DNA of 43,803 bases from the NCBI GenBank assembly GCA_018167155.1, contig GCA_018167155.1_4332.1, one strand, 5' to 3'. A model generated the notes under the pieces. The model was not told the origin of the DNA, did no database searches, and saw only the letters and a list, made by a program, of their open reading frames with translations. Of this stretch, positions 1 through 43,803 are shown one piece after another. The DNA comes from a phage. Position 1 is the first letter of the stretch. Each line of letters opens with the position of its first letter. The position numbers and the translations under genes are program-made.

Positions 1-30
1 AAAAAAAATCCCGGCTGGGTCAGGGCCGGG
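1..30 (-). terminator. Rho-independent terminator ending the leftward lysis operon
   Basis: Minus-strand transcript forms a CCCGGC...GCCGGG stem (about 10-30) followed by a run of 8 U (plus-strand A1-A8), 67 nt downstream of the lysozyme stop. Confidence 0.7.
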
Positions 31-96
31 ATAAAACTGGAGAGCAGAGGGATGGAACAGGAGGTGATTTAAGTATCGTCGGATTAGTCTTGGGTG

Positions 97-2615: not shown

Positions 2616-2644
2616 ATAGTAGCCTATTATATCTTAGTGTGCAA
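2616..2644 (-). promoter_or_regulatory. Sigma70-like promoter (minus-strand TTGCAC-N17-TACTAT) with embedded AATAG-N4-CTATT palindrome
   Basis: Plus-strand gtgcaa at 2639-2644 and atagta at 2616-2621 with 17-nt spacing; palindrome AATAGTAGCCTATT at 2615-2628; 30 nt upstream of the start at 2585. Confidence 0.6.
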
Positions 2645-3822: not shown

Positions 3823-3856
3823 AACCCTCACTCCTCTGTCTCGTTCCGATAAGTGA

Positions 3857-3885
3857 ATAGTATCCTATTATGTTGGGGTGTGCAA
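3857..3885 (-). promoter_or_regulatory. Sigma70-like promoter (TTGCAC-N17-TACTAT) with AATAG-N4-CTATT palindrome
   Basis: Plus-strand gtgcaa 3880-3885 and atagta 3857-3862; palindrome AATAGTATCCTATT at 3856-3869. Confidence 0.6.
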
Positions 3886-4266
3886 GAGATTCATTGAAAA
3901 TGGTTACGTTGCCGTTGTGGATTCTTTATGGGAGGTTGTGCCTTTATTCTTATTACTTGGTAACTAAAGGGCAGGCCTTAAGCCTGCCCAATAATCGTTA
4001 CATTTTTACGGTCGCGAATCTATGGCACATTAAGAAAATCAGATACTTAAGAGATATGCTGCCGATGTGAATAGAGCTTGCCCAGGGCAACCGGAGATAC
4101 TTAGGAAGGAAAGTTACGACAATTCTTATGTTCAGTAAGCCTGTGTTTAACCCTTTGCTTGACGCACGGGTTAAACATTCTTACAAGGTGAACAAGAATC
4201 AAAGTAACTAAGATATAGAAGCACCTTAAACGAAGATTTTCATAATGTCAATAGGTGCGATTATGT

Positions 4267-4295
4267 TTGATTTCCCATTATTCGCAATGTATACT
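4267..4295 (+). promoter_or_regulatory. Sigma70-like promoter TTGATT-N17-TATACT for the rightward replication operon
   Basis: Hexamers at 4267-4272 and 4290-4295, about 30 nt upstream of the SD and ATG at 4328; lacks the AATAG palindrome. Confidence 0.5.
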
Positions 4296-4327
4296 TGGTT
4301 TCGTTAACTGATAGTGAGGGTTTGAGA

Positions 4328-4498
4328 ATGACTCAGAATGAGGTAGCTGAGCGTATCGGGGTTACTCGTCGCACGCTTAATAACTGGTTAAAGAGTGGGA
4401 AGTTCCCGGATTGTTGTATTCGCATTATGGGTCGCCGGCAGCCAGGTACGTTCGACCCGGAGAAAGTGGAAGCGTGGATTAAGGAGAATGTGAAATGA
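4328..4498 (+). CDS. AlpA/excisionase-like HTH DNA-binding protein
   Basis: ORF track 4295..4498; ATG at 4328 after GAGGG; motif VAERIGVTRRTLNNWLKSGKFP...VEAWI resembles AlpA-family HTH regulators. Confidence 0.5.
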   Translation: MTQNEVAERIGVTRRTLNNWLKSGKFPDCCIRIMGRRQPGTFDPEKVEAWIKENVK

Positions 4499-4728
4499 CC
4501 GAGTTCCAGTCACGTGTATTTACGGCAGTCGTTTCATTAACCCGTAAAAAAGGGTCGTGCAGCGTTATGGACTTGCGCCGTAGTTATTTTAAGTACTATA
4601 GTTCAGCCATTATTGAAGGGTCGTTACGTGTACTGGTTAAATCCGGTGTCGTGAAAAATGTTGGCGGGAAATATAGTGCCGTTGCCGAAGTTCGCGGAAT
4701 GACCGCTACTTTAGAAGACCTGGAATAA
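4495..4728 (+). CDS. Hypothetical protein
   Basis: 77 aa, ATGA-coupled to the upstream gene. Confidence 0.5.
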   Translation: MTEFQSRVFTAVVSLTRKKGSCSVMDLRRSYFKYYSSAIIEGSLRVLVKSGVVKNVGGKYSAVAEVRGMTATLEDLE

Positions 4729-7029: not shown

Positions 7030-7056
7030 TAAAAAGAAAGGGGCGTTAAGCCCCTT
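7030..7056. terminator. Hairpin terminator between convergent genes
   Basis: AGGGGC-GTTAA-GCCCCT stem-loop; on the minus strand it is followed by TTTCTTTTT (terminates the XRE gene). Confidence 0.5.
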
Positions 7057-7261
7057 CACCGAACGCCAGCCACTTGGCGTCTACTTCCAGCACTTCCGCC
7101 AGTTTAAACAGCGTTGCCGGGCGGACGTCCTGAGTTACACCGAGCGCAAGTTGGTTAATTGCGCCCTGGGAAACACCAGCCAGGACAGCCAAACGGCGCT
7201 GGGAGATGCCGAGTTCTTTACGGCGTTGTTCTACACGGATGCCTAGTTCAGATGGTTGCAT
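7046..7261 (-). CDS. XRE-family (Cro/CI-type) helix-turn-helix transcriptional regulator
   Basis: 71 aa; LGISQRRLAVLAGVSQGAINQLALG is a classic HTH_3 motif. The only leftward gene inside the rightward operon; SD AAGGAG upstream of the ATG. Confidence 0.75.
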   Translation of the reverse strand: MQPSELGIRVEQRRKELGISQRRLAVLAGVSQGAINQLALGVTQDVRPATLFKLAEVLEVDAKWLAFGEGA

Positions 7262-7281
7262 GTCAATTACTCCTTAGTTAG

Positions 7282-7354
7282 TTGATATGTGAATAGTACC
7301 ATATTAATTATTTTATAAAAGCACATTGACATGTGAATAGTTCGCTATTATAGT
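7282..7354. promoter_or_regulatory. Divergent control region with two copies of the AATAG-N4-CTATT operator-like palindrome
   Basis: Copy 1 AATAGTACCATATT at 7292-7305; copy 2 AATAGTTCGCTATT at 7336-7349 inside TTGACA(7326-7331)-N17-TATAGT(7349-7354), which drives the + gene at 7386. A minus-strand TACTAT over copy 1 may serve the XRE gene. Confidence 0.55.
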
Positions 7355-7385
7355 TAGTCCATACCAAACGAGAGGAGAGAAACAG

Positions 7386-8767: not shown

Positions 8768-10014
8768 TTTTAAAAGAACGCGGTGGCAATAACGATGTGC
8801 ACGCATTACTGTCGCCGTCTGGGGCTAAAAAGTGGCTGGCGTGCAGTGCATCACTGGCCTGTGAAAAAGATATTCCTAACACGTCAGGTAAAGCCGCGGT
8901 ATTAGGCACAGCCATGCATACAATAGCCGAGGTCCATTTAAATCAGTACATCAAAGGCACTGCACTGCCGTTAGAGCGTGAAGTTGGTGCTTATGTACTG
9001 GACGAGGGCAAAGGCCAGATTAAGGCGCTAATCAGTCCGATGAAAGGTGCGGTACTGATTACGGCGGACATGATTGAGCAGGTGCGCAAGTACACCGACT
9101 ACTGCAAAGCGATTATCGATGTGGCGACTTACGCCAAACTCGAGATGCGTGTCAATCTTACTGAGGTGTTGCATCCGGGGTATGAAGGCGTTGAGACGTT
9201 CGGAACTGCTGACCTTGTTGCCGTCCAGGAACTGGCTAACACCGACGAGCACATGCTTATCATCGGCGACCTGAAAACTGGACGGCATCGTGTCGAAGCG
9301 AAAGAAAACAAGCAGCTTATGCTTTACGCGCTAGGTGTTTATCGCAGACTCAAGAGACGTTATAGCATAACAACCGTTCGTCTGGTCATCTTCCAGCCGT
9401 ACGCGGGCGGTGCGTCGGAGTGGGACATCTCGGTTGAAGGCCTGGAACTGTTCGCTAAGTTCGCGCAGAAACGAGCACTGTTAGCGCTTGATGCTTATTC
9501 CCGAGGTAAGAAGAACCTGAAAGCGTCGGACTTCCGGCCGTCTGTCGACGGTTGTCAGTGGTGTCGGTTCTCGGAACAGTGCGCCGCGCGAACAAAAACC
9601 GTTAACGCGGTATTGGCGGAAGAACTGGAAGACGACTTTGCACTGGAACTTACGCCAGAGCAACTTGTAGCTGAGTATGAGAAGTTGCCGTTGTTGCGCC
9701 AGCACATAGACAAGGTTGAGAAAGCGATGGCTGCTGCGTTGCATTCCGGTAAAAAAGTACCGGGGTACAAGCTGGTAGAAGGTCGTCCTGGTAATCGTGC
9801 GTGGAAAGACGCCGATGCGATTGAAGTGTCGCACGGAGACATTCTCAAAAAAGAGGTATTGATGTCCCCTACGGAGGCGGCAAAAGTTCTTTCGGCAGAT
9901 GAGATGGCAGCGCTTGAGCCATTTATCACACGTAAGCCGGGTGCACCATGTGTCGCAACGGCGGACGACAAACGTCCTGAGTGGAATCAGGTAACAGAGG
10001 AGGATTTGGAATGA
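8764..10014 (+). CDS. PD-(D/E)XK nuclease, Cas4/RecB-like (DUF2800 family)
   Basis: ORF track 8749..10014; ATG at 8764. HALLSPSGA N-term, GDLKTGRHRVEAKENKQLMLYALG (D...EAK...QxxxY nuclease motif) and C-terminal CQWCRFSEQC Cys cluster. Confidence 0.6.
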   Translation: MILKERGGNNDVHALLSPSGAKKWLACSASLACEKDIPNTSGKAAVLGTAMHTIAEVHLNQYIKGTALPLEREVGAYVLDEGKGQIKALISPMKGAVLITADMIEQVRKYTDYCKAIIDVATYAKLEMRVNLTEVLHPGYEGVETFGTADLVAVQELANTDEHMLIIGDLKTGRHRVEAKENKQLMLYALGVYRRLKRRYSITTVRLVIFQPYAGGASEWDISVEGLELFAKFAQKRALLALDAYSRGKKNLKASDFRPSVDGCQWCRFSEQCAARTKTVNAVLAEELEDDFALELTPEQLVAEYEKLPLLRQHIDKVEKAMAAALHSGKKVPGYKLVEGRPGNRAWKDADAIEVSHGDILKKEVLMSPTEAAKVLSADEMAALEPFITRKPGAPCVATADDKRPEWNQVTEEDLE

Positions 10015-10166
10015 GCACGATTCAAGAACTGCATAAAAGCTATCTACAACAACACCGAAACGGAGCAAAGCTAGGCCGGAGCAAAGCCGTATACCGTGTA
10101 TTCAGTATGGTAATTAGAGACGAGTCGGCGAAAATTATCCGTATGACAAAAGAAACGTTTAAATAA
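10011..10166 (+). CDS. Hypothetical small protein
   Basis: ORF track 9981..10166; ATG at 10011 overlaps the nuclease stop as ATGA. Confidence 0.4.
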   Translation: MSTIQELHKSYLQQHRNGAKLGRSKAVYRVFSMVIRDESAKIIRMTKETFK

Positions 10167-10170
10167 AGTG

Positions 10171-10199
10171 TTGACACCTGAATAGCGAACTATTATAGT
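10171..10199 (+). promoter_or_regulatory. Sigma70-like promoter TTGACA-N17-TATAGT with AATAG-N4-CTATT palindrome in the spacer
   Basis: TTGACA 10171-10176, TATAGT 10194-10199, palindrome AATAGCGAACTATT at 10181-10194. Confidence 0.6.
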
Positions 10200-10254
10200 T
10201 CTAATCACTGGCCGGGCCGTTCCCGGAGTAAACTGAAAACTGAGGAATCGAAAA

Positions 10255-10881
10255 ATGGGAATTAAGCTTAATCTGCGTAAAGTAAACACTGCATGGGTCA
10301 ATGTATTCGAACGCGAAAAAGACCGTGAAAATGATGATGGCTCAATTACTAAAGGCCAGTACAGCGCGACTATTATCCTGCCGTCTGATCATGCTCAAAT
10401 CGACGCACTATACGACACCGTTTACGCTGTAGTTGAAGAGGCGTTAGGTGCAGCCGCTGCCGAGAAGTGGATGAAGTCCAACTACGGTGAAGGTAAGCAC
10501 ATGGATAAATGCGCGATTAAAGACATCGCCGAGCGCGACAATCCGTTTGAAGACTTCCCGGAAGGCTTCTACTTCAAAGCGAAGGCACAGAAACAGCCAC
10601 TGATTGTAACCTCTAAAAAAGGTGAGACTCAGGTAGAGCAGGACTTCAATGTAGACGGCGAACAGATTGAAGGCGAACAGGTTTACAGCGGCTGCGTCGC
10701 TAACGTAAGCGTAGAAATCTGGTTTAGCCAGAAATACAAAGTACTCGGCGTTAACCTGCTGGCGATTAAATACGTCGGCGAAGGTAAAGCATTCGGCGGT
10801 TCTAAAGTCGCCGCAAGCGTCGACGACCTGGAAGATGACGAAGAAGACGAAGCACCGCGCCGCGAACGTCGCCGCCGTTAA
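10255..10881 (+). CDS. Putative ssDNA-binding protein (DUF2815-like) with acidic C-terminal tail
   Basis: 208 aa; context (after DUF2800 nuclease, before polA) and the C-terminal DDLEDDEEDE tail match phage SSB-like DUF2815 proteins. Confidence 0.45.
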   Translation: MGIKLNLRKVNTAWVNVFEREKDRENDDGSITKGQYSATIILPSDHAQIDALYDTVYAVVEEALGAAAAEKWMKSNYGEGKHMDKCAIKDIAERDNPFEDFPEGFYFKAKAQKQPLIVTSKKGETQVEQDFNVDGEQIEGEQVYSGCVANVSVEIWFSQKYKVLGVNLLAIKYVGEGKAFGGSKVAASVDDLEDDEEDEAPRRERRRR

Positions 10882-10898
10882 TATCTGAATCAATTTAA

Positions 10899-10925
10899 CT
10901 AAGGCCCTTCATTGGGCCTTTTTAC
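10899..10925 (+). terminator. Rho-independent terminator
   Basis: AAGGCCC-TTCATT-GGGCCTT stem-loop followed by TTTTTA. Confidence 0.55.
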
Positions 10926-13998: not shown

Positions 13999-14492
13999 AA
14001 GCACCAAGTGACGATATAAAAGATTTTCTGTCATACGACCCGGATACCGGGATATTTAAATGGGTCAAGCACAGATGCCAGACCGCGAAACCTGGAGATG
14101 TTGTTACCTACAAGGACCGTAAAGGGTACATATTGTTAGGATGGAATAGGGTGTATTACCGCGCACACAGGCTGGCGTGGTGGTGGGTATACGGAGAGAT
14201 GCCAACTAAGCAAATAGACCATATTAACGGCATACGGGACGATAACCGGATTTGTAACCTACGGCTTGCGGATGAATTTCAACAGAACCATAACCGCAAG
14301 ACCCCAGTTACGAACACCAGCGGCGTGAAAGGGGTTAACTGTAGTAAGCCTCATAATGCTTGGTGTGCTCGAGTTGCTTTTAAAGGTACACGCTATCAGA
14401 TTGGGTATTTCCAGAACCTAAATGAAGCAGAGGAATCGCTGAGAGAATTTAGGGCAAAACTGCACGGAGAGTTTTGCAACCATGGCGACTAA
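13995..14492 (+). CDS. HNH homing endonuclease with AP2-like domain (paralog 2)
   Basis: 165 aa; shares DIKDFLSYD...TGIF.W, AHRLAWW..YGE.P, DHINGIRDDNRICNLR and GVKGV...EEA with the paralog at 10936. Confidence 0.7.
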   Translation: MKAPSDDIKDFLSYDPDTGIFKWVKHRCQTAKPGDVVTYKDRKGYILLGWNRVYYRAHRLAWWWVYGEMPTKQIDHINGIRDDNRICNLRLADEFQQNHNRKTPVTNTSGVKGVNCSKPHNAWCARVAFKGTRYQIGYFQNLNEAEESLREFRAKLHGEFCNHGD

Positions 14493-14796
14493 AGAGGGCC
14501 GCGTACAGAAATACGCAAAAGAGCGATTCGAGGCCATTGGTGGCCTCGTTCGTAAACTTTCCTACGAAAACAGACGCGCAGCGATGGATTTGTTAGTGGT
14601 CCTGCCCGGCGGCATCATCTGGTTCGTCGAGATTAAGAAAGACGAAAACACGAAGCCAGACCCGCACCAGCTACGGGAACATGAGAGATTCCGGAAACGT
14701 GGTGCGAATGTTTTTGTCGTTGGTTCGTTTAAACAGGTTGACACCCTAATAGCGAACTATTATAGTCAGCCCTACACCAACAATATAAGGAATTGA
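14482..14796 (+). CDS. VRR-NUC domain nuclease
   Basis: 104 aa; DLLVVLPGGIIWFVEIKK...QLREHERFRKRGANVFVV matches the VRR-NUC PD-(D/E)XK pattern. Confidence 0.6.
   Translation: MATKEGRVQKYAKERFEAIGGLVRKLSYENRRAAMDLLVVLPGGIIWFVEIKKDENTKPDPHQLREHERFRKRGANVFVVGSFKQVDTLIANYYSQPYTNNIRN
14738..14766 (+). promoter_or_regulatory. Sigma70-like promoter TTGACA-N17-TATAGT with AATAG-N4-CTATT palindrome, inside the 3' end of the VRR-NUC gene
   Basis: TTGACA 14738-14743, TATAGT 14761-14766, palindrome AATAGCGAACTATT at about 14748-14761. Confidence 0.55.
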
Positions 14797-14799
14797 GAA

Positions 14800-14991
14800 A
14801 TGAAACACGAATATGACCGCAAACCAGCACGTGACATTGTACCAGGTGACATGATTTTCAACGTTAAAACACGTCGGCCTGTTGCCGTAGATACGGTGTA
14901 CGTAGAGTCGAATGGTAAACTGGTTATTGAAGACGTAACTGGCAACGTTACGGCGTTCGGGCGTAAAGAGTTAGTTCTGGTGCTGAAATGA
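14800..14991 (+). CDS. Hypothetical protein
   Basis: 63 aa ORF with SD AAGGAATTGAG. Confidence 0.5.
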   Translation: MKHEYDRKPARDIVPGDMIFNVKTRRPVAVDTVYVESNGKLVIEDVTGNVTAFGRKELVLVLK

Positions 14992-17223: not shown

Positions 17224-17253
17224 GAAAAGGCCCCGTTTGGGGCCTTAGTTTTA
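17224..17253. terminator. Bidirectional terminator between convergent operons
   Basis: AAAAGGCCCC-GTTT-GGGGCCTT followed by TAGTTTTA; flanked by T/A runs in both orientations. Confidence 0.65.
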
Positions 17254-20205
17254 TTTATCTTCTAGTGCTGCCAGCCTCTTCTCGAACTCGCGCATCTTCT
17301 TACGCTGATAGGCAATCTCGATGAAGAACATCTGGTCCGCCCTAACCCCCCATCTGCCGCCGGGAGGGGATACTTGTACAGTCTGGCCATCTTCATCAAT
17401 ATCATACGCAGCTTCAATTGAGTCGTAGCACAAGAAAGCATATTTACAATCGGTAGAATCTTTCTCCATAAGCCCATGGTTGACCAATATGTCTCGCACA
17501 TCTTGGGCTATCACACCGAAGTGTATCCTTGCAGTGTCACCCTTGATTGCTAGGCTTTCAAGCCACTTAAAAGATATTACATGTATATCCTCCCATGCGG
17601 TAAGGAGTTGTCCCTCAATTTCCTCTTTGTTCGTCTTAAGTGTACCATCAGACGTGTTTATCGTACCGGTGGCCGCGTACACCGTAGTCCACCTATTACC
17701 TGCCGAACCTAAAGACACTTGCGAGTCTAAGTAAGGAAGAAAATTGTTGTATGAGTAGAAGCCTCCTGACGCATACATAATAGCCCTGTTAGGCGTTGCA
17801 TGGTTTGCCCCGTACAGTTGCAGCAACGCACCATCGGAACTGGATGCACCATCACCACCGCTAACTATCAGTCTTTGACCCGATGGGGTTTTAGTGGGGA
17901 CTGTTTTTGAAATCAGCCCGTAATCACCATCAAACCGTGCGCGCACGGCAGACTGTTGTGTACCATCGTATTCCAGCCCCGTTACATGCAGGGAGTACAC
18001 GCTTACATCATTGTCAAACGTTAAAGGTGCTTCTACATGGCGTACACCATCTACCCCCATGGCGACAGGTATTGTACGGTTAGGAGTTGCTCCGTATTTG
18101 AAATCACGTGATACGTACGGGTGGTCTTCAATCTTTATCCGGTAGCTATATAAGTCAGCCGGATGCCCATCATGTTTGTACCATAACTTCGCACTGTTAT
18201 CCCCTATGCTCCAGGGAGAGAAGAAGTCTTCCCCACCAAAGATATAGTACAACCAGCCATCTTTAACACAGACCGAGCCGGCGCCGACAGCAGAGTTAAC
18301 GATATGACCCTGGTATATTTGGTCGGTAATATTAAACCACTGAACATCATCTAAAGATGAAGGCCAGGACGACACATTAACTTTGCACATAAAGGTCCTC
18401 GGATACGAACCTTCATAGCGGCTGTCCTGCTCGCCACCTTCCCACTCACCAAAGGCACGTTCTGTACCAAAGATGTAGAGATAGTCACCTACTTTAGCGA
18501 ACGGAAGATTGGAGCGATGTACATTGTTCGGAAATCGCAAGTAGCTCCAGTTTTGCCCAGAATCGGTGCTCATCGCCAGTGTAGAGCCAGGGGAAGTAGG
18601 TAATGTGCCGCGTGTGGTAAGGTATAACACACCACCATAACTTTTCACGCACGGCTCAGAAGCGTTATCAGCGTATGCCTGAGCGACAGTGCGACGAACG
18701 AATACGCCAGGATTGTCATACACGTTACTAAAATACAAGACACCGAGACGCCTAGGGGACACATCGCCGTTGTGATAGCCGACAGCGATAGTGTAGTTAA
18801 CATCATCTATAACCGCAAAACTATGTGTCTCCGTGACACACAAATCAGCGTTAGTGGAGTATGCTACCCCAGGCAATTCAGTAATTTCCCACGGGCTGTC
18901 CCAGAATCGCGTTGCGAAGTTCCAGGTAACACCCGCATTGTTTATGGTGGAACTCGCCGGGGTTGAGAGCGTAACAGTGAACGTATTTCGGTTAATTATA
19001 GACGAAACCGTCATATTACCCGATACGCCAGTTGCCGATGTATTAGAGAAGTTAACCGCATCTCCTGCTTTTAGGCCATGATTTTCTATGACAATGGTAG
19101 CAGTAGTGGAGCCAGAACTAATAGTTATTCCGCCGGTTGGGTGTCTAAAATACGGCATTGGGCGTGACCAAAGTTCTGCCTTCTTCATCCGCGTATTAGA
19201 TAAGTAGCGGGTTTCTATAACTGCATATAATCGGTTGCCGCATGTACCCATGCTCATGCAGTGGTAGTTAACTCTGTCCGTAGAAACACTAGCATTATAG
19301 TCAGCATGGATTGGAGTCAACCACTCAGGCATTGACCAAGTCTGCCCGTCGTCTCCAGAGCGAACCCAAGCTACATGTAAGTTTTGAACACCATGTCGTT
19401 CGCCCGCCATAAACGGGGCGTAAATAACATGGTCGTAGACGAAAGTTTTATCCTGCGTCCATGCGTTGTAGAACGGGGTATCCGTCACCTTAGTTAGTGA
19501 GCCGTTAAAGAAGCCATCAGCTACATAAGTAAGCGGTTGCCCGGCTACGCGCTCGTAAACGAATGCAGCATTCTTAAATTTACTAATGTCAGGTAATTGG
19601 GAAACTTTATAAGTCAAACCCCTGCCGTCTATAATCCAATTGTTGGGGGAAGCTGCTAATACATTAAAAATAGATTGAGTATCATCAGTTACGCCGTCGC
19701 CCACGGCGCCCCATGCGCGCGGGTCGTATTCGTCCTTCCATCGCGCCACATGTAAATCTGGGTACAGAATTGCACCGTTTACATCAGATATTTGCTGCCG
19801 CAGTATGACCGACCCGACAGGCTGCCACGCCCCATCTGCCACGCCACCGGTGGACTGCGGAGAAGATGACGCTGGGATAATTTTTGGTAGAGCACCCAAC
19901 CAATAGTACCAATCCCCGTCACCGCCAGAGGACGACGACCACAAAACTGCGGTGTTTCGGTCGTTAGCGGATAGTGTACCGCCTGACGTGAAATCAAAAT
20001 CTGCCAGTTTAAAACCAGCATCACGCAACACGGCAGGTAACGTCTTCTGGGTCTGTCCAGTAACCTGATTTGTCGCGTAATCAATATCGGCACCACCGGC
20101 GACACCGCCGGATTTGCCAGTGATAACCTCGGCCTCGAAAATCTGATGTTTCTTGGCGGTTTGTAAATCCGCCAGGCTTAAAACGTCACCGCATCCGCTT
20201 GACAT
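17251..20205 (-). CDS. Tailspike / tail fibre with Asp-box glycosidase-like domain and C-terminal intramolecular chaperone (peptidase S74-like) domain
   Basis: 984 aa; Asp-boxes SGDDGQTW and STDSGQNW; C-terminal roughly 130 aa resemble the auto-cleaving chaperone domain of endosialidases and L-shaped tail fibres; SD AAGAGGA. Confidence 0.7.
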   Translation of the reverse strand: MSSGCGDVLSLADLQTAKKHQIFEAEVITGKSGGVAGGADIDYATNQVTGQTQKTLPAVLRDAGFKLADFDFTSGGTLSANDRNTAVLWSSSSGGDGDWYYWLGALPKIIPASSSPQSTGGVADGAWQPVGSVILRQQISDVNGAILYPDLHVARWKDEYDPRAWGAVGDGVTDDTQSIFNVLAASPNNWIIDGRGLTYKVSQLPDISKFKNAAFVYERVAGQPLTYVADGFFNGSLTKVTDTPFYNAWTQDKTFVYDHVIYAPFMAGERHGVQNLHVAWVRSGDDGQTWSMPEWLTPIHADYNASVSTDRVNYHCMSMGTCGNRLYAVIETRYLSNTRMKKAELWSRPMPYFRHPTGGITISSGSTTATIVIENHGLKAGDAVNFSNTSATGVSGNMTVSSIINRNTFTVTLSTPASSTINNAGVTWNFATRFWDSPWEITELPGVAYSTNADLCVTETHSFAVIDDVNYTIAVGYHNGDVSPRRLGVLYFSNVYDNPGVFVRRTVAQAYADNASEPCVKSYGGVLYLTTRGTLPTSPGSTLAMSTDSGQNWSYLRFPNNVHRSNLPFAKVGDYLYIFGTERAFGEWEGGEQDSRYEGSYPRTFMCKVNVSSWPSSLDDVQWFNITDQIYQGHIVNSAVGAGSVCVKDGWLYYIFGGEDFFSPWSIGDNSAKLWYKHDGHPADLYSYRIKIEDHPYVSRDFKYGATPNRTIPVAMGVDGVRHVEAPLTFDNDVSVYSLHVTGLEYDGTQQSAVRARFDGDYGLISKTVPTKTPSGQRLIVSGGDGASSSDGALLQLYGANHATPNRAIMYASGGFYSYNNFLPYLDSQVSLGSAGNRWTTVYAATGTINTSDGTLKTNKEEIEGQLLTAWEDIHVISFKWLESLAIKGDTARIHFGVIAQDVRDILVNHGLMEKDSTDCKYAFLCYDSIEAAYDIDEDGQTVQVSPPGGRWGVRADQMFFIEIAYQRKKMREFEKRLAALEDK

Positions 20206-20217
20206 ATAGAGTCCTCT

Positions 20218-22773
20218 TTAATTAAAACCATTGCTGAATCCGTCGGAGAAACCGCTGCCGTATGGCGCGACGCCGTCGTATTTATAGAATCCGTCGTCAT
20301 AGTTGTAGCCAGTAATCTTGACCGTGCGGTCGTCGCCAGGGTCGATTGAAGAAACAACTATCTTCTGAGCATTATGCCTTGCTTCGTTGCCGAATGAAAA
20401 CTCAGTTTTTAGCGCACTATTCCCCGTGTAGATTGCCTCCTCCGGCGCGGAGAGCATAATCACTTCGCGGTCGTGGCTTCCTTTGATAACAGAGATACTC
20501 TGCACAGAGCCGTCGCGCTTCTTAAGAATGATGGAGTGGTCGTCCCCGGGAGTAAACGTAACAGGCTGTGACAGCGTCAGCGTAAGCCCGTTAACGTCAA
20601 CAACATAACCATCTTGCGGGGCGATGCGGGAGCCTTTAACTACGCTGATTACACCGCCGGGTGTAGCGAGAGCGCCTTCTTCTGTAGCTTCGAACTCTAC
20701 GACAACTTTACTTAACGCATTGCGCTGATAGCGACGCCGCGCCAGCCAGTACGCCTGCTGATAGTTACGCACGCCTTTCGATTCGTACTCCTCCGTGTTT
20801 GCGCCGAGTTCTTCCGGGATATAAATAGTTTCCTGTACGTTAGTATCCGGGTCAATGTACGAGAACGACAGGCTATCGTAGGTCGTAGAATCATTAAACG
20901 TGCGGGTCCATTTCTCTGTACCAGTAGTTTTGCTGCGGTGAGTGAACACCATCTCGGGCCCTGCAACCGGGCGGTCGAAGCGCAACATAATATCCGCGCC
21001 TTTACGGTACGCGGTACAGAACACGGCTTCGGCTATAGTCTGAACGATGTCCTGCATCGTGGTGTCGTAATCGTCGAACGTGTAGCAGAACTGACCTGCT
21101 AATTCGCTGCCAAAATAGGACTCAATTTCTTCTTGCACGGCAAGCAACTTATCCATGTTTGCCGTTGTCAGTTCCAGATTACCCACCACCGGGTCGCGAG
21201 CCAGTCTGATTAGCGACTGCACCGCTTGAGTATTTGGGGTCATTACTGTATCGAATACCCCATTGCCTAAGTATTTGTAGCACATCTCTGTCGCGATCAT
21301 GCGCAGTTCCGGGTTGTCGATACTGGCTGCACGCGGTGTCTGTTTACGGGCACAATGTACGGTAGTTCGGTTGCCGTAGTGCGGGGTTGTGTCCAGAGAC
21401 TGCCCGTACAGGTTAATGAAGGTTATCTCGTCGCTTACCGTTCCGTCGTAGTCCTTGTCGAAATTCGTTACACGGCGCATACGGGCGCGGAAACGCGATG
21501 CAGTAGGCAACTGCCCGTAGATAGACGTACCGACGTAATCCGTGCTATTACCAGTAATCGTAGCACGTACCGTGTAAATGTCGCTCAACGGGTTACGCTG
21601 AGAGTCAATCATCTGGTACTGGAGTTCTACCGTTACGCTGGTGCGATTATAGCCGCCGTCATATTTGTAGAGGCCGTTTTGCCCTGCAACGTTAGCAAGC
21701 ACACGGTCAACTTCCCCGCGCACCATGTAATACCAGTCGGTCAGGGATACGTCATAGGTGTTGCTCGGGCCGATAAACGTATCTGAACGCTCTGTTAGCG
21801 TGTACGTCTGCCCGCTAGTCAACGCGGCCCAGTTAGACGCCCCGTTTACGGCTAATCTTACTTCGAAGTCGTCAACGTATAAAACCTCAAACGAGCCGTT
21901 CAGGTTAGTGACATCAGTAACGTCAAAGTTGCTCAACACCGCGACATCACCGACGCTAAGAAACTCAGAAAAAGCAGAGTCGCCGGACGGGTCATAAATG
22001 TAGCCGGTGTTTGAAATACGTTTGGCTGTGCCGTCGGCGCTTGGGTTAGCCCCGATGTCGTTTGGCGCTTTCAGTACAATACCGTCAACGTCGTCGTTGG
22101 AGTATGTCACATAGAGTTTCTGGTCAATGACGTCGCCGATTTGTAGTTGCGGCGATGCGGTGTTGTTCGGTGACGTGTACGGTGCATATACAGCAACAGA
22201 GGAACCGGTGATGTCGCTTATCAGGGTATCGCCTTCCGTGACGCCATCAGACTCGATATGCAGATGCCCGCGCCCGGCATCATAGTACGAATACTCCAGC
22301 AAAGCACCCGTGGAGTTGAACGCCTTATACGTCTGCATCAGGTCGTTAGGGATTGTCTGCACAGTCCCGCAGATGTCATAAGAGCGCTCATAGGGGCGCG
22401 GCTTGTTGGAGCGGTCTGTGAGACTGTTATTAGGCGATGTTGTCTGGTTGTTAGTCGCCGTGTAGTTGGCGTTGGTGGCCGTGTTCAGACCGAACAACTT
22501 GGCAATTGGCTTAAGGATAAAACCGAACACCTTACTAACTGCACCGAGCGCCCCGCTACCGGCGCCCTCAATAATGTGGTACACGGCGTCTTCGTCTTTG
22601 AGTGCGTCGAAGTCGTCGGTGACATCAGTATCATCGCCAATCTCGCCCAGGTAGACGCGCACCGGCACGCCGTCCGGGATACGGTTAACGACAAACTCCA
22701 TCGGCATCCCGACGTGTTTTGTACGGTCGAAAGCTCCATCAGCGTTTCGCGTGTAGTGCAGGATTATCGCCAA
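20218..22773 (-). CDS. Central tail / host-specificity protein (gpJ-like)
   Basis: 851 aa, last large gene of the tail module before the tailspike; call is by size and synteny. Confidence 0.5.
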   Translation of the reverse strand: MAIILHYTRNADGAFDRTKHVGMPMEFVVNRIPDGVPVRVYLGEIGDDTDVTDDFDALKDEDAVYHIIEGAGSGALGAVSKVFGFILKPIAKLFGLNTATNANYTATNNQTTSPNNSLTDRSNKPRPYERSYDICGTVQTIPNDLMQTYKAFNSTGALLEYSYYDAGRGHLHIESDGVTEGDTLISDITGSSVAVYAPYTSPNNTASPQLQIGDVIDQKLYVTYSNDDVDGIVLKAPNDIGANPSADGTAKRISNTGYIYDPSGDSAFSEFLSVGDVAVLSNFDVTDVTNLNGSFEVLYVDDFEVRLAVNGASNWAALTSGQTYTLTERSDTFIGPSNTYDVSLTDWYYMVRGEVDRVLANVAGQNGLYKYDGGYNRTSVTVELQYQMIDSQRNPLSDIYTVRATITGNSTDYVGTSIYGQLPTASRFRARMRRVTNFDKDYDGTVSDEITFINLYGQSLDTTPHYGNRTTVHCARKQTPRAASIDNPELRMIATEMCYKYLGNGVFDTVMTPNTQAVQSLIRLARDPVVGNLELTTANMDKLLAVQEEIESYFGSELAGQFCYTFDDYDTTMQDIVQTIAEAVFCTAYRKGADIMLRFDRPVAGPEMVFTHRSKTTGTEKWTRTFNDSTTYDSLSFSYIDPDTNVQETIYIPEELGANTEEYESKGVRNYQQAYWLARRRYQRNALSKVVVEFEATEEGALATPGGVISVVKGSRIAPQDGYVVDVNGLTLTLSQPVTFTPGDDHSIILKKRDGSVQSISVIKGSHDREVIMLSAPEEAIYTGNSALKTEFSFGNEARHNAQKIVVSSIDPGDDRTVKITGYNYDDGFYKYDGVAPYGSGFSDGFSNGFN

Positions 22774-27338: not shown

Positions 27339-27367
27339 TTGCACACCCCAATATAATAGGGTACTAT
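27339..27367 (+). promoter_or_regulatory. Sigma70-like promoter TTGCAC-N17-TACTAT with AATAG-N4-CTATT palindrome
   Basis: TTGCAC 27339-27344, TACTAT 27362-27367, palindrome AATAGGGTACTATT at about 27355-27368. Confidence 0.6.
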
Positions 27368-27396
27368 TCACTTACACCAACAATGAGGGGTTTAAA

Positions 27397-29154: not shown

Positions 29155-29183
29155 AAAAGGCCCCGTTAGGGGCCTTAGTTTTA
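29155..29183. terminator. Bidirectional terminator (strong on minus strand after the tail tube gene)
   Basis: AAAAGGCCCC-GTTA-GGGGCCTT-AGTTTTA, a near-identical copy of the element at 17224. Confidence 0.7.
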
Positions 29184-36140: not shown

Positions 36141-36184
36141 AGCTTAGCACATTTTCAGTTAAAAGTCAACTATTCGAATAGTTT
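36141..36184 (-). promoter_or_regulatory. Candidate leftward promoter (TTGACT-N17-TAAGCT) abutting a 16-bp perfect palindrome AACTATTCGAATAGTT
   Basis: Minus-strand -35 from plus agtcaa 36164-36169 and -10 from plus agctta 36141-36146; palindrome at 36168-36183. Confidence 0.35.
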
Positions 36185-36235
36185 ATTCCAACATTTACAA
36201 TTGAGCGGAATAACTGGAATAGGTAAATAAATAGT

Positions 36236-36264
36236 TTGCAGACACCAGTATAATAGGGTACTAT
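36236..36264 (+). promoter_or_regulatory. Sigma70-like promoter TTGCAG-N17-TACTAT with AATAG-N4-CTATT palindrome
   Basis: TTGCAG 36236-36241, TACTAT 36259-36264, palindrome AATAGGGTACTATT. Confidence 0.6.
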
Positions 36265-36298
36265 TCAGTTATCGAAGCGAGAGATAAGGGGCTTAAAG

Positions 36299-36538: not shown

Positions 36539-36564
36539 TAAGGCCCCATAACGGGGCCTTTTAT
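36539..36564. terminator. Terminator hairpin between convergent genes
   Basis: AGGCCCC-ATAAC-GGGGCCT followed by TTTTAT; identical stem to the element at 38641. Confidence 0.65.
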
Positions 36565-38112: not shown

Positions 38113-38141
38113 TTGCAGACACCAATATAATAGGGTACTAT
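38113..38141 (+). promoter_or_regulatory. Sigma70-like promoter TTGCAG-N17-TACTAT with AATAG-N4-CTATT palindrome
   Basis: TTGCAG 38113-38118, TACTAT 38136-38141; the promoter-to-SD sequence is nearly identical to the 36236 promoter. Confidence 0.6.
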
Positions 38142-38167
38142 TCAGTTAACTTAAACAGGAGATGAAA

Positions 38168-38329
38168 ATGGTTACTTTGATTACTTGGGAACACGAAAAT
38201 AGTCAACCTGAAACGCGTGAATTCGAAACTGTAGCGGCTTGCTACCGCCTGGCGTCAGGCGGATTCTATAAATCACAGATTGTAAATGAGTTTGGAGTGG
38301 TGGATTATGAGTTTACGAAACAATCTTAA
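38168..38329 (+). CDS. Hypothetical small protein (hand-called, about 53 aa)
   Basis: ATG 6 nt after AGGAG; reads MVTLITWEHENSQPETREFETVAACYRLASGGFYKSQIVNEFGVVDYEFTKQS. Confidence 0.35.
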   Translation: MVTLITWEHENSQPETREFETVAACYRLASGGFYKSQIVNEFGVVDYEFTKQS

Positions 38330-38651
38330 GAACCACTTGAAGGTCTACGGGCCTTATGGCTTGCATTCATGGAACGGTGGGTATGACGTAAACGATGACC
38401 TGCCGATACGTAAAATAGCACGCGCGGCGCGACGCAATGTAAAGCCGGGTGACGTGCTAGTCATACGAGATAATAATGTCATTGTTGAGGTTGAGAAAGT
38501 TCATGGCATGTTTCTCACAGTAATACCTGTTGATGTTGCTTTGCGTGACGCAAGGCCCTACCGAGAAGCTGGGGGTGGTAAAACTGGTAAATACACATAC
38601 GGCAGGATTGAGATACATAAAACACATCTTGATAAAGTTAAGGCCCCATAA
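38307..38651 (+). CDS. Hypothetical protein
   Basis: ORF track 38286..38651; internal ATG at 38307 after GGAGTGGTGG; 114 aa basic protein. Confidence 0.5.
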   Translation: MSLRNNLKNHLKVYGPYGLHSWNGGYDVNDDLPIRKIARAARRNVKPGDVLVIRDNNVIVEVEKVHGMFLTVIPVDVALRDARPYREAGGGKTGKYTYGRIEIHKTHLDKVKAP

Positions 38652-38664
38652 CGGGGCCTTTTTC
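38641..38664. terminator. Rho-independent terminator between the plus cassette and the portal gene
   Basis: AGGCCCC-ATAAC-GGGGCCT followed by TTTTTCTTT. Confidence 0.7.
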
Positions 38665-40150: not shown

Positions 40151-41422
40151 TTAAAGTGCGAAAGTCACCGGGACGTTAATAACTGGTTTGCGAATCGGCA
40201 TTTCATATGCAATTGGGTATGTGGTTCCGTCATTCTGGTGGTCCACGCCGCCAGATTTATCCGGTTCGCCGTTCTTGTCGTAAGCCTGTTGCTCCAGGCA
40301 TCGCGCCGTAACTGGGCAAGCCTGTTCATTAATCATGACCATACCAGATTCAAGCGCCTTATTCATCGCCGATACGCGGTCTTTAACCGGCGGGTTTGTC
40401 GATTTAGCGCGTACTTCGAAACCGGCCTGCTGTAGCTGGGCGATGTCTGAGGTACTGGCGTTGTTGCTTTTACGGTTTTTGCCGCTGGCGTCCGGGTACA
40501 TAACGATATAGTGGCCCTTACTTTTCCAGCGTTCAGTTATAGCCCGCACTACATCCGGCGTATCGAACATATCAACCAACTCGGCAACAGCGTGCCACAC
40601 CTTCCCGCGTTGCACGTAAACTGTGCTCGCCATGTGACCTACGTTAAAGTCCTGCCCGATATACAGAGTCTCGCCAGGCTTGATTGTTTCGCGACTACTA
40701 TTTTTCCTGCGGTCGTAAGCGTAGTAGACCGTCCCAGCCGTGAGGTTCACGAACTCGCCGTTGATGTAGGCGTCGATCAACTGACCCGGGTATGTGTCGC
40801 GTAATGACTGCACATAATCTTCTGGCAGGAACGGGTTAGACAGGGTAGATGCCTGAATCATCTCGTAGCCTGGATTCTTTTTTACTACCCAGCGGTCATG
40901 TACGAAACGGAACCCTTCCGGCGTAGTGAACACGGAAACGGTATTAGCCGGTTTCGGCGTAATAGGTTTATACGTCCGCGGTAACTGGCGGTTACGGGCG
41001 ATTACTTTGTTCCACGCGTGCTCAGCGTGTTCCATGTTAAGGGTGTCCAATTCGTCGATTTTTGCACGAAACGATTCGTAGCCAACTATTCGTGCTGGAT
41101 TATCGAGTGTACGCAGGACAAAATCCCCGAATTGTCCTGAAGACGTATATATTATGTTGTCTGACTTGTTGTATTTGTACCGGATACCCCAGTCCGTCAG
41201 CTTCTCTTCCATACGAGGCGCAAGGATAAGACGTACCAGGTCGTAGGTAGGCTCGTACATGGCGATGATAGAATCGCTACCACCTTCCATACTGTCCAGT
41301 AGCGCGGAGTTGCACATAACCTCTGATTTCCCGGTGCCGAAGCCAGCTACGAACGCAGGGAACTTGCAATGCATACCGAGAAACGCGCCTTGCGGTTCTG
41401 TCGCCGTGATATTAACGTTCAC
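40151..41422 (-). CDS. Terminase large subunit
   Basis: 423 aa; Walker A FVAGFGTGKSE near the N-terminus, acidic nuclease-like C-terminal region; GTG start with AAGGTG SD. Confidence 0.8.
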   Translation of the reverse strand: MNVNITATEPQGAFLGMHCKFPAFVAGFGTGKSEVMCNSALLDSMEGGSDSIIAMYEPTYDLVRLILAPRMEEKLTDWGIRYKYNKSDNIIYTSSGQFGDFVLRTLDNPARIVGYESFRAKIDELDTLNMEHAEHAWNKVIARNRQLPRTYKPITPKPANTVSVFTTPEGFRFVHDRWVVKKNPGYEMIQASTLSNPFLPEDYVQSLRDTYPGQLIDAYINGEFVNLTAGTVYYAYDRRKNSSRETIKPGETLYIGQDFNVGHMASTVYVQRGKVWHAVAELVDMFDTPDVVRAITERWKSKGHYIVMYPDASGKNRKSNNASTSDIAQLQQAGFEVRAKSTNPPVKDRVSAMNKALESGMVMINEQACPVTARCLEQQAYDKNGEPDKSGGVDHQNDGTTYPIAYEMPIRKPVINVPVTFAL

Positions 41423-43752: not shown

Positions 43753-43781
43753 AATATAGTAGGGTCGCAGGTAATAGTCAA
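43753..43781 (-). promoter_or_regulatory. Sigma70-like leftward early promoter TTGACT-N17-TATATT with a degenerate AATAG/CTAGT palindrome over the -35
   Basis: Plus agtcaa 43776-43781 and aatata 43753-43758; about 30 nt upstream of the first early ORF. Confidence 0.5.
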
Positions 43782-43803
43782 CTAGTCATTGCAGAAAATA
43801 GAT

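Follow-up and report, generated by a model that had tools for sequence, protein, structure and literature searches.

Promoter-embedded 14-bp dyads of a Kagunavirus genome as probable operators of a small 434 Cro-like protein

Introduction

Cro of phage 434 binds 14-bp dyads in which the outer bases are fixed and the central bases are variable. In mycobacteriophage L5, with its stoperators, and in phage phiC31, with its conserved inverted repeats, one repressor acts at many sites throughout the genome and silences many transcription units; the L5 sites are asymmetric 13-mers that lie in transcribed regions and act as roadblocks, both phages are temperate, and their proteins are unrelated to the XRE protein described here. 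Phages of the type analysed here are regarded as strictly lytic.

Here, we analysed a 43,803-nt stretch of phage DNA (referred to as the window) in which the dyad AATAG-N4-CTATT recurs in promoters. As in the operators of 434 Cro and CI (ACAA-N6-TTGT), the outer bases of the 14-bp dyads in the window are fixed and the centre is free. In both systems, the sites overlap core promoters and include a divergent pair beside the regulator gene. The sites of the window differ from the 434 operators in their half-site sequence and in number and placement: 434 has three adjacent operators, whereas the window has two, 44 bp apart, in the divergent region and at least seven more at distant promoters. Moreover, and again unlike 434, the window lacks a CI partner, a Peptidase_S24 domain and an integrase, and belongs to a phage held to be strictly lytic. 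By contrast with L5, the sites are symmetric and lie inside core promoters. Thus, the system is of a known kind, i.e. a Cro/CI repressor-operator system, and what is unusual is its spread over the whole genome of a virulent phage and its three promoter registers.

The original prediction held that this operator is not recognisable from described phages. This was overstated, because the motif is already in GenBank for Escherichia phage fBC-Eco01 and because the 5-N4-5, 14-bp geometry is that of the 434/P22 Cro/CI family. In the report on fBC-Eco01 (OM272052), seven matches identified by PHIRE, with the consensus tgAATAGTa-ccTATTat-T, were called phage RNA polymerase promoters (PMC9825357). The corresponding GenBank features coincide with the dyads that we found in this genome (our locus L001), and the motif is the same as that in the window; the paper assigns it to a phage-encoded RNA polymerase, which neither genome encodes. 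The motif itself is therefore already published, under a label that is contradicted by gene content. The paper on phage Golestan also lists seven PHIRE promoters. Literature searches on promoters, repressors and PHIRE in Guernseyvirinae, Kagunavirus, Jerseyvirus and Jersey-like phages returned genome reports only and no functional study.

Results

The window is a complete Kagunavirus genome

Over the 6-kb replication segment used as query, the 43.8-kb window was ~90% identical to Kagunavirus Escherichia phages such as vB_VIPECOTPH05A, EM1 and fBC-Eco01. The ends of the window (1-31 and 43787-43803) meet in a terminator (cccggctgggtcagggccggg followed by a minus-strand T-run) directly before a promoter at 43781-43753, and this terminator-promoter region is contiguous in fBC-Eco01. 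Thus, we conclude that the window is a complete, circularly permuted genome of a Kagunavirus (Guernseyvirinae).

The large ORFs of the window encode an endosialidase tailspike, a tail protein, a tape measure protein, a primase and a DNA polymerase; an RNA polymerase gene is neither among these large ORFs nor in annotated relatives. The tailspike (984-aa ORF, 17251-20205, minus strand) is a full endosialidase with beta-propeller, beta-barrel, tail-spike and S74 chaperone domains, indicating that the phage targets the K1 polysialic acid capsule. The annotations of fBC-Eco01 and Salmonella phage Ent1 contain no integrase and no second Cro/CI protein.

The dyad is strongly non-random and largely non-coding

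The window contains eight exact copies of AATAG-N4-CTATT (starting at 2615, 3856, 7336, 10181, 14748, 27355, 36252 and 38129), compared with 0.02 expected from dinucleotide shuffles; with up to one mismatch, it contains 12 copies compared with 0.96 expected. When all 5-mer dyads with spacers of 0-10 were counted, AATAG-N4-CTATT ranked first in the window as well as in fBC-Eco01 and Ent1, and the second most frequent 5-mer dyad of the window was a terminator stem of the AAGGC-N10-GCCTT family. The pentamer AATAG/CTATT alone is not enriched (82 occurrences, ~74 expected); the signal therefore resides in the dyad arrangement only.

A crude ORF map leaves 8% of the genome uncovered, and six of the eight exact copies lie there; shuffled non-coding DNA alone gave a mean of 0.005 dyad copies. 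The copy at 27355 merely overlaps a spurious TTG-extended ORF, so that seven of the eight are non-coding; the remaining copy, at 14748, lies in the nuclease ORF 14482-14796, within its final 49 nt. Every exact copy is followed by a start codon 20-61 nt downstream. A one-mismatch dyad at 21114-21127 (AATAGGACTCAATT) lies inside the gene for an 851-aa tail protein and is exact in locus L018; about one such match is expected by chance, and this one is probably a coding-sequence coincidence. In total, we conclude that the dyad is real and strongly non-random.

Dyads occupy three registers in sigma-70-like promoters

The original prediction had placed the dyads in promoters of two registers, i.e. 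in the spacer and over the -10 hexamer. Its promoter coordinates are correct and both registers were found as described. The features are as follows.

7046..7261, minus strand: XRE gene, encoding a 71-aa 434-Cro-like HTH_3 protein (Pfam HTH_3, E=2.3e-12)
7292..7305, no strand assigned: one-mismatch dyad AATAGTACCATATT before the XRE gene, overlapping a TACTAT -10 hexamer that reads towards the XRE start at 7261
7326..7354, plus strand: class A promoter with dyad 7336-7349 in the spacer, predicted to drive the genes from 7386 on
10171..10199, plus strand: class A promoter of the SSB / HNH / DNA polymerase operon, dyad 10181-10194
14738..14766, plus strand: class A promoter before the gene at 14800 and the SNF2 helicase operon, dyad 14748-14761
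2616..2644, minus strand: class B promoter TTGCAC-N17-TACTAT, dyad 2615-2628, leftward small genes into lysis genes
3857..3885, minus strand: class B promoter of leftward early genes, dyad 3856-3869
27339..27367, plus strand: class B promoter of a cassette with an imm-like membrane protein and an exonuclease, dyad 27355-27368
36236..36264, plus strand: class B promoter (TTGCAG) of a cassette with a 78-aa membrane protein, dyad 36252-36265, terminator 36540-36560
38113..38141, plus strand: class B promoter (TTGCAG) of the cassette 38162-38651, dyad 38129-38142, terminator 38640-38660
36141..36174, minus strand: class C promoter TTGACT (36169-36164)-N17-TAAGCT (36146-36141), with the -35 hexamer inside the one-mismatch dyad 36161-36174
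43753..43786, minus strand: class C promoter TTGACT-N17-TATATT (43781-43753), with the -35 hexamer inside the one-mismatch dyad 43773-43786, heading the NinH-like and terminase genes

The three class A promoters, TTGACA-N17-TATAGT, are the best sigma-70 matches of the window (11 of 12 positions); all have a 17-bp spacer that contains the dyad, and they head the rightward replication operons. Class B promoters, TTGCA(C/G)-N17-TACTAT, frame the other five exact copies and the one-mismatch copy before the XRE gene, with the dyad over the -10 hexamer. They are weaker, TTGCAC matching three of six and TACTAT four of six consensus positions, and they were not called by the promoter scan, which counts against a model in which they are operator-controlled promoters. 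Two degenerate copies had also been predicted, at 36168-36183 and 43762-43781; such copies exist, but they are best placed at 36161-36174 and 43773-43786. They define a third register, class C, in which a minus-strand TTGACT -35 hexamer lies inside A(A/C)TAG-TTGA-CT(A/T)TT. The class C promoter at 43781-43753 matches sigma-70 at 10 of 12 positions, and the other class C site is conserved in fBC-Eco01 (position 6154 of L001). The 43773-43786 site is ACTAG-TTGA-CTATT in Kagunavirus and AATAG-TTGA-CTAGT in Jerseyvirus, with one mismatch each.

Judged by the positions of the hexamers, the dyad is centred near -18.5 in class A, -12.5 in class B and -33.5 in class C, and all three positions fall within the RNA polymerase footprint. 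A protein bound to the dyad would thus overlap the spacer, the -10 or the -35 hexamer, where RNA polymerase would be excluded.

Several observations concern the surroundings of these promoters. The everted 16-bp palindrome AACTATTCGAATAGTT at 36168-36183 is perfect, has its half-sites pointing outward and overlaps the class C dyad; the intergenic region 36160-36265 contains six AATAG/CTATT pentamers, the densest cluster of the genome. Identical bidirectional terminator hairpins (AAGGCCCCATAACGGGGCCTT) at 36540-36560 and 38640-38660 close two small plus-strand cassettes. The cassette at 27339 ends at the AAGGC-N10-GCCTT dyad at 29157, which belongs to the same stem family as these hairpins, and further members lie at 10901, 17227 and 33490. 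Because each cassette has its own promoter-operator and terminator, each appears to be a self-contained unit, antisense within the late genes. On the reverse strand, class B sites have -10-like hexamers (TATATT, TATACT or TATGTT) in the class A register, with poor -35 regions; they might act as divergent promoters from which late transcription of the minus strand resumes past each cassette. Class C ACTAGTTGACTATT (43773-43786 of the window; AATAGTTGACTAGT in Jerseyvirus, at 40891-40904 of Ent1, L002) bears what we take to be a resemblance to the core of the E. coli trp operator, ACTAGTTAACTAGT, which may be coincidence.

The fBC-Eco01 annotation raises the possibility that a polymerase reads the motif as a promoter element. 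This could be the promoter of a phage RNA polymerase or the site of a phage factor that redirects the host polymerase. The motif is the dominant repeated 20-mer found by PHIRE, seven copies of which are annotated as phage promoters in fBC-Eco01, and all Kagunavirus sites have an oriented TATAAT beside one half-site. However, the window and its annotated relatives have no RNA polymerase gene as described above, the central bases are free to vary, and the dyad takes three registers with respect to the sigma-70 hexamers and both orientations with respect to transcription, as an operator would and polymerase recognition would not. We therefore consider this explanation quite unlikely. A MerR-type spacer operator was also rejected, because it needs an overlong spacer of 19-20 bp and the class A spacers are all 17 bp; cruciforms, restriction sites and replication iterons were considered and put aside because of stem length and the dispersed, promoter-only placement.

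Half-sites are fixed and centres are free

For a comparison among relatives, we used 64 loci around SSB homologues and 80 loci around XRE homologues from IMG/VR as well as four full genomes. We counted 26 different central tetramers among 88 distinct Kagunavirus sites, a set defined by the ten half-site bases. In near-identical genomes, the centre of the dyad in the SSB promoter is TTAG, CGAA, TTGG, CAAG, CGAG, TAGA or TTAA, with the half-sites and both hexamers fixed. Because the left half-site in class A promoters stays constant in spacer DNA that is not read by sigma-70, another factor is needed to account for it.

The same comparison bears on whether the dyad has a function of its own at all. 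It could hitch-hike in a duplicated promoter cassette or arise from overlapping -10-like hexamers on both strands: the three cassette promoters are alike over ~35 bp, CTATTATAG is itself palindromic, and TATAAT/ATTATA-like hexamers are present on both strands at the sites. Three observations make this highly improbable, i.e. class A and class B promoters share nothing but the dyad, the left half-site is invariant in the spacer even as the adjacent central bases drift, and whole promoter sets switch dyad together between clades (see below).

Between the SSB promoter (10171-10199) and the SSB start at 10255, the leader carries a hairpin, CCGGG-CCGTT-CCCGG (10212-10226), that is conserved in all clades, with apparent compensatory changes to CTCGG/CCGAG in L052/L053 and to CCCGG/CCGGG in L063. 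The hairpin may serve as a translational operator or in processing of the SSB mRNA.

A 434 Cro homologue is encoded beside a divergent pair of dyads

The XRE protein consists of an HTH domain only (Pfam HTH_3, 47.2 bits, cutoff 23). Its best solved homologue is 434 Cro, which also has 71 aa (E=5e-7), and it also matches the 434 repressor and P22 C2. Over residues 6-68, its identity to the 434 Cro of phage Sf101 is ~41%; this match was not counted as independent support, because Sf101 has an ordinary 434 immunity region with ACAA operators and adds nothing beyond the PDB match.

The dyads 7292-7305 and 7336-7349 lie between the XRE gene on the minus strand and the rightward operon, so that divergent promoters adjoin the regulator gene. 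The mismatch in 7292-7305 is conserved in 32 Kagunavirus loci, and the site is a putative weak auto-operator. In a candidate second XRE promoter, TTCACA-N16-TAAAAT, the -35 hexamer abuts the rightward operator. The XRE gene is present and syntenic beside the rightward promoter in all relatives sampled, and the recognition helix GVSQGAINQ is constant in all loci with a Kaguna-type XRE gene except L025 (GVSQSAINQ).

A temperate lysogeny switch, made up of CI, Cro and integration, was rejected: no Peptidase_S24 domain, second repressor or integrase was found. The operator set would work like that of Cro and would not form a lysogeny module, as suggested by a 71-aa XRE protein with an HTH domain only and by the lack of an annotated integrase in fBC-Eco01 and Ent1.

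Dyad and XRE recognition helix change together between clades

Both the dyad in homologous promoters and the recognition helix of the XRE protein are clade-specific, and the dyad switches in concert at all of these promoters.

Kaguna: XRE helix SQGAINQ, dyad AATAG-N4-CTATT
Jersey: XRE helix SQSLITH, dyad AATAG-N4-CTATT
L057: XRE helix SQARISH, dyad TAATA-N6-TATTA
Cornell/SE1: XRE helix TQSAISH, dyad ATTAN-N4-NTAAT
L053/L058: XRE helix SQGYISH, dyad TTAGC-N2-GCTAA
L052 group: XRE helix SQGCFGH, dyad TATAG-N2-CTGTA

Except for the L052 type, the clade dyads are variants of (A/T)(A/T)TAG-N4-CTA(A/T)(A/T). Where the core is shared, the flank differs. Immediately 5' of AATAG, the SSB promoter has G in 30 of 30 loci with a Kaguna-type XRE gene and T in nine of nine with a Jersey-type gene, including three mosaics in which the SSB gene and promoter are otherwise Kaguna-like. 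In these three (L016, L022 and L028, about 9917-10624), the SSB gene is 99-100% identical to that of Kagunavirus and is accompanied by the Kagunavirus promoter, in which, near the dyad, only the flank base differs, T replacing G; the presence of Kaguna SSB modules in Jersey-type loci shows that the two genera have recently exchanged modules. Across whole genomes, 26 of 26 Jersey sites have T/T flanks, and the Kagunavirus flanks are mostly G/T.

These data also bear on a host transcription factor as the binder, with the phage borrowing the signal of a host regulon. The core motif is common to Kagunavirus, which infects E. coli, and Jerseyvirus, which infects Salmonella, and such close hosts share regulators. 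However, Jerseyvirus and Cornellvirus both infect Salmonella and their dyads differ in homologous promoters; in the recombinants, the flank base follows the resident XRE type; and we know of no E. coli regulator with the consensus AATAG-N4-CTATT. A host factor is thus very unlikely.

The clade co-variation is a correlation that is confounded by shared ancestry, and any clade-specific factor would give the same pattern. An alignment of XRE helices with dyads did not provide a residue-to-base code: Kaguna and Jersey share the AATAG core with helices that differ at four positions, and the Jersey helix, in 434 numbering, is closer to the Cornell helix, whose dyad differs.

The AlpA-like protein is an unlikely binder

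The original prediction had named two candidate binders, the XRE protein and an AlpA-like HTH_17 protein (4295/4328-4498) encoded by the first gene of the primase operon. The first fits the data, and the second does not. In favour of HTH_17 as the dyad-binding regulator, its gene is confined to Kagunavirus and Jerseyvirus, the very genera that carry AATAG-N4-CTATT, and its own candidate promoter, that of the primase operon (TTGATT-N17-TATACT, 4267-4295), lacks the dyad. By RNA-seq of the Kagunavirus vB_Eco_K1B4, which is at the gene level and coarse, the HTH_17 homologue was classed as early and the XRE homologue as middle. This time course assigns 42 of 57 genes to the middle class and DNA polymerase to the late class, and was judged too coarse to be used as support.

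By contrast, the Kagunavirus locus L023 lacks HTH_17 and keeps six exact dyads together with the XRE gene, and clades without HTH_17 still have clade-specific dyads in the same promoters. Moreover, the HTH_17 helix varies within Kagunavirus (RRTL, RQTI, TMTL) where the dyad is constant, and the Jersey HTH_17 helix is the same as that of the window, yet the flank base differs. We therefore regard HTH_17 as an unlikely regulator of the dyads.

In L023 (4445-5030, corresponding to 4295-4728 of the window), HTH_17 and its 77-aa neighbour are replaced by unrelated ORFs, encoding a 47-aa CxxC...CxxC protein and a 149-aa protein, before the same primase gene. A lone half-site, atgtgAATAG (4062-4075), lies ~200 bp upstream of the primase-operon promoter; its 5' flank is that of two sites near the XRE gene.

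Related operators flank CI-type repressors in temperate-type contigs

Two unrelated IMG/VR contigs of temperate type, L121 and L137, encode CI-type repressors (HTH_3 and Peptidase_S24) that are ~42% identical to the XRE protein, with the helix GVSQG(L/T)I(G/S)Q compared with GVSQGAINQ in the window. Each repressor gene is divergent from a small Cro-like gene, and the sites ATTAG-N4-CTAAT, AATAG-N4-CTAAT and ATTAG-N4-CTATT cluster on both sides of it, placed like OR and OL of lambdoid phages. The site layout in L138 is the same, and L127 and L139 have related sites beside shorter XRE homologues. The nearest named phage to the L121, L137 and L138 regions is Variovorax phage VarioGold (44%).

These immunity regions resemble the window in a near-identical helix (GVSQGTISQ and GVSQGAINQ) and in operator geometry and core. 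They differ from it in having a full-length CI with Peptidase_S24, a divergent Cro-like partner and operators confined to two clusters that flank the repressor gene. Altogether, genomic context suggests that this subfamily of XRE proteins is tied to the operator type A(A/T)TAG-N4-CTA(A/T)T.

A model for shut-off of early promoters by the XRE protein

The fixed half-sites, the variable centre, the concerted change of the dyad between clades and its overlap with the spacer, the -10 or the -35 hexamer support the original prediction of a dimeric DNA-binding protein that acts at most early and accessory promoters. We consider it likely, judging from sequence comparison, that the dyads are the operators at which the phage's 71-aa XRE protein, homologous to 434 Cro and to the N-terminal domain of CI, would shut these promoters off. 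In this model, we infer binding, dimer state, repression as opposed to another effect, timing and the promoter activity of these sequences. An XRE dimer would bind AATAG and CTATT half-sites 4 bp apart and, bound inside the core promoter, would exclude the host sigma-70 RNA polymerase. As it accumulates, the XRE protein would turn down together the leftward early genes, the three replication operons and the three plus-strand cassettes, one of which encodes the imm-like protein and the exonuclease and two of which encode sets of small proteins. The promoter of the XRE gene itself, having a one-mismatch site only, would be shut off last; this site and the TTCACA-N16-TAAAAT promoter, with its -35 hexamer against the rightward operator, would give delayed autoregulation.

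Two further observations fit the model less well. The imperfect class C copies sit on promoters that head packaging and head genes, which is hard to place in a simple early-to-late logic. Moreover, all Kagunavirus sites are asymmetric, TATAATAG-N4-CTATTCA(C/G), which a symmetric dimer does not explain.

Discussion

The Kagunavirus and Jerseyvirus are among the most often isolated candidates for phage therapy and biocontrol of E. coli and Salmonella, and an annotated Cro/CI repressor is sometimes taken as a warning sign of lysogeny. If the XRE protein is a global shut-off of early promoters in the lytic cycle, this worry would be answered and the family would have its first regulatory map. If true, the reading of the dyads as XRE operators would also correct the published annotation of phage RNA polymerase promoters.

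A wider proposal, which we regard as rather doubtful and advance only tentatively, is that an entire, strictly lytic subfamily retained no more than the DNA-binding half of an immunity repressor of lambdoid type. Operators for it would have been placed, in three registers, in all early and accessory promoters and perhaps in those for packaging, to form one global switch, and repressor and operators would then have co-diverged into at least six specificity groups among phages with common hosts. If so, there would be heteroimmunity-like classes among virulent phages, and an infected cell would silence incoming DNA only if it came from the group of the resident phage.

The XRE protein and its dyads would, moreover, provide a small and portable set of repressor and operators that comes in several natural specificities, and the model predicts that a plasmid-borne XRE gene would block only phages of the matching operator group.
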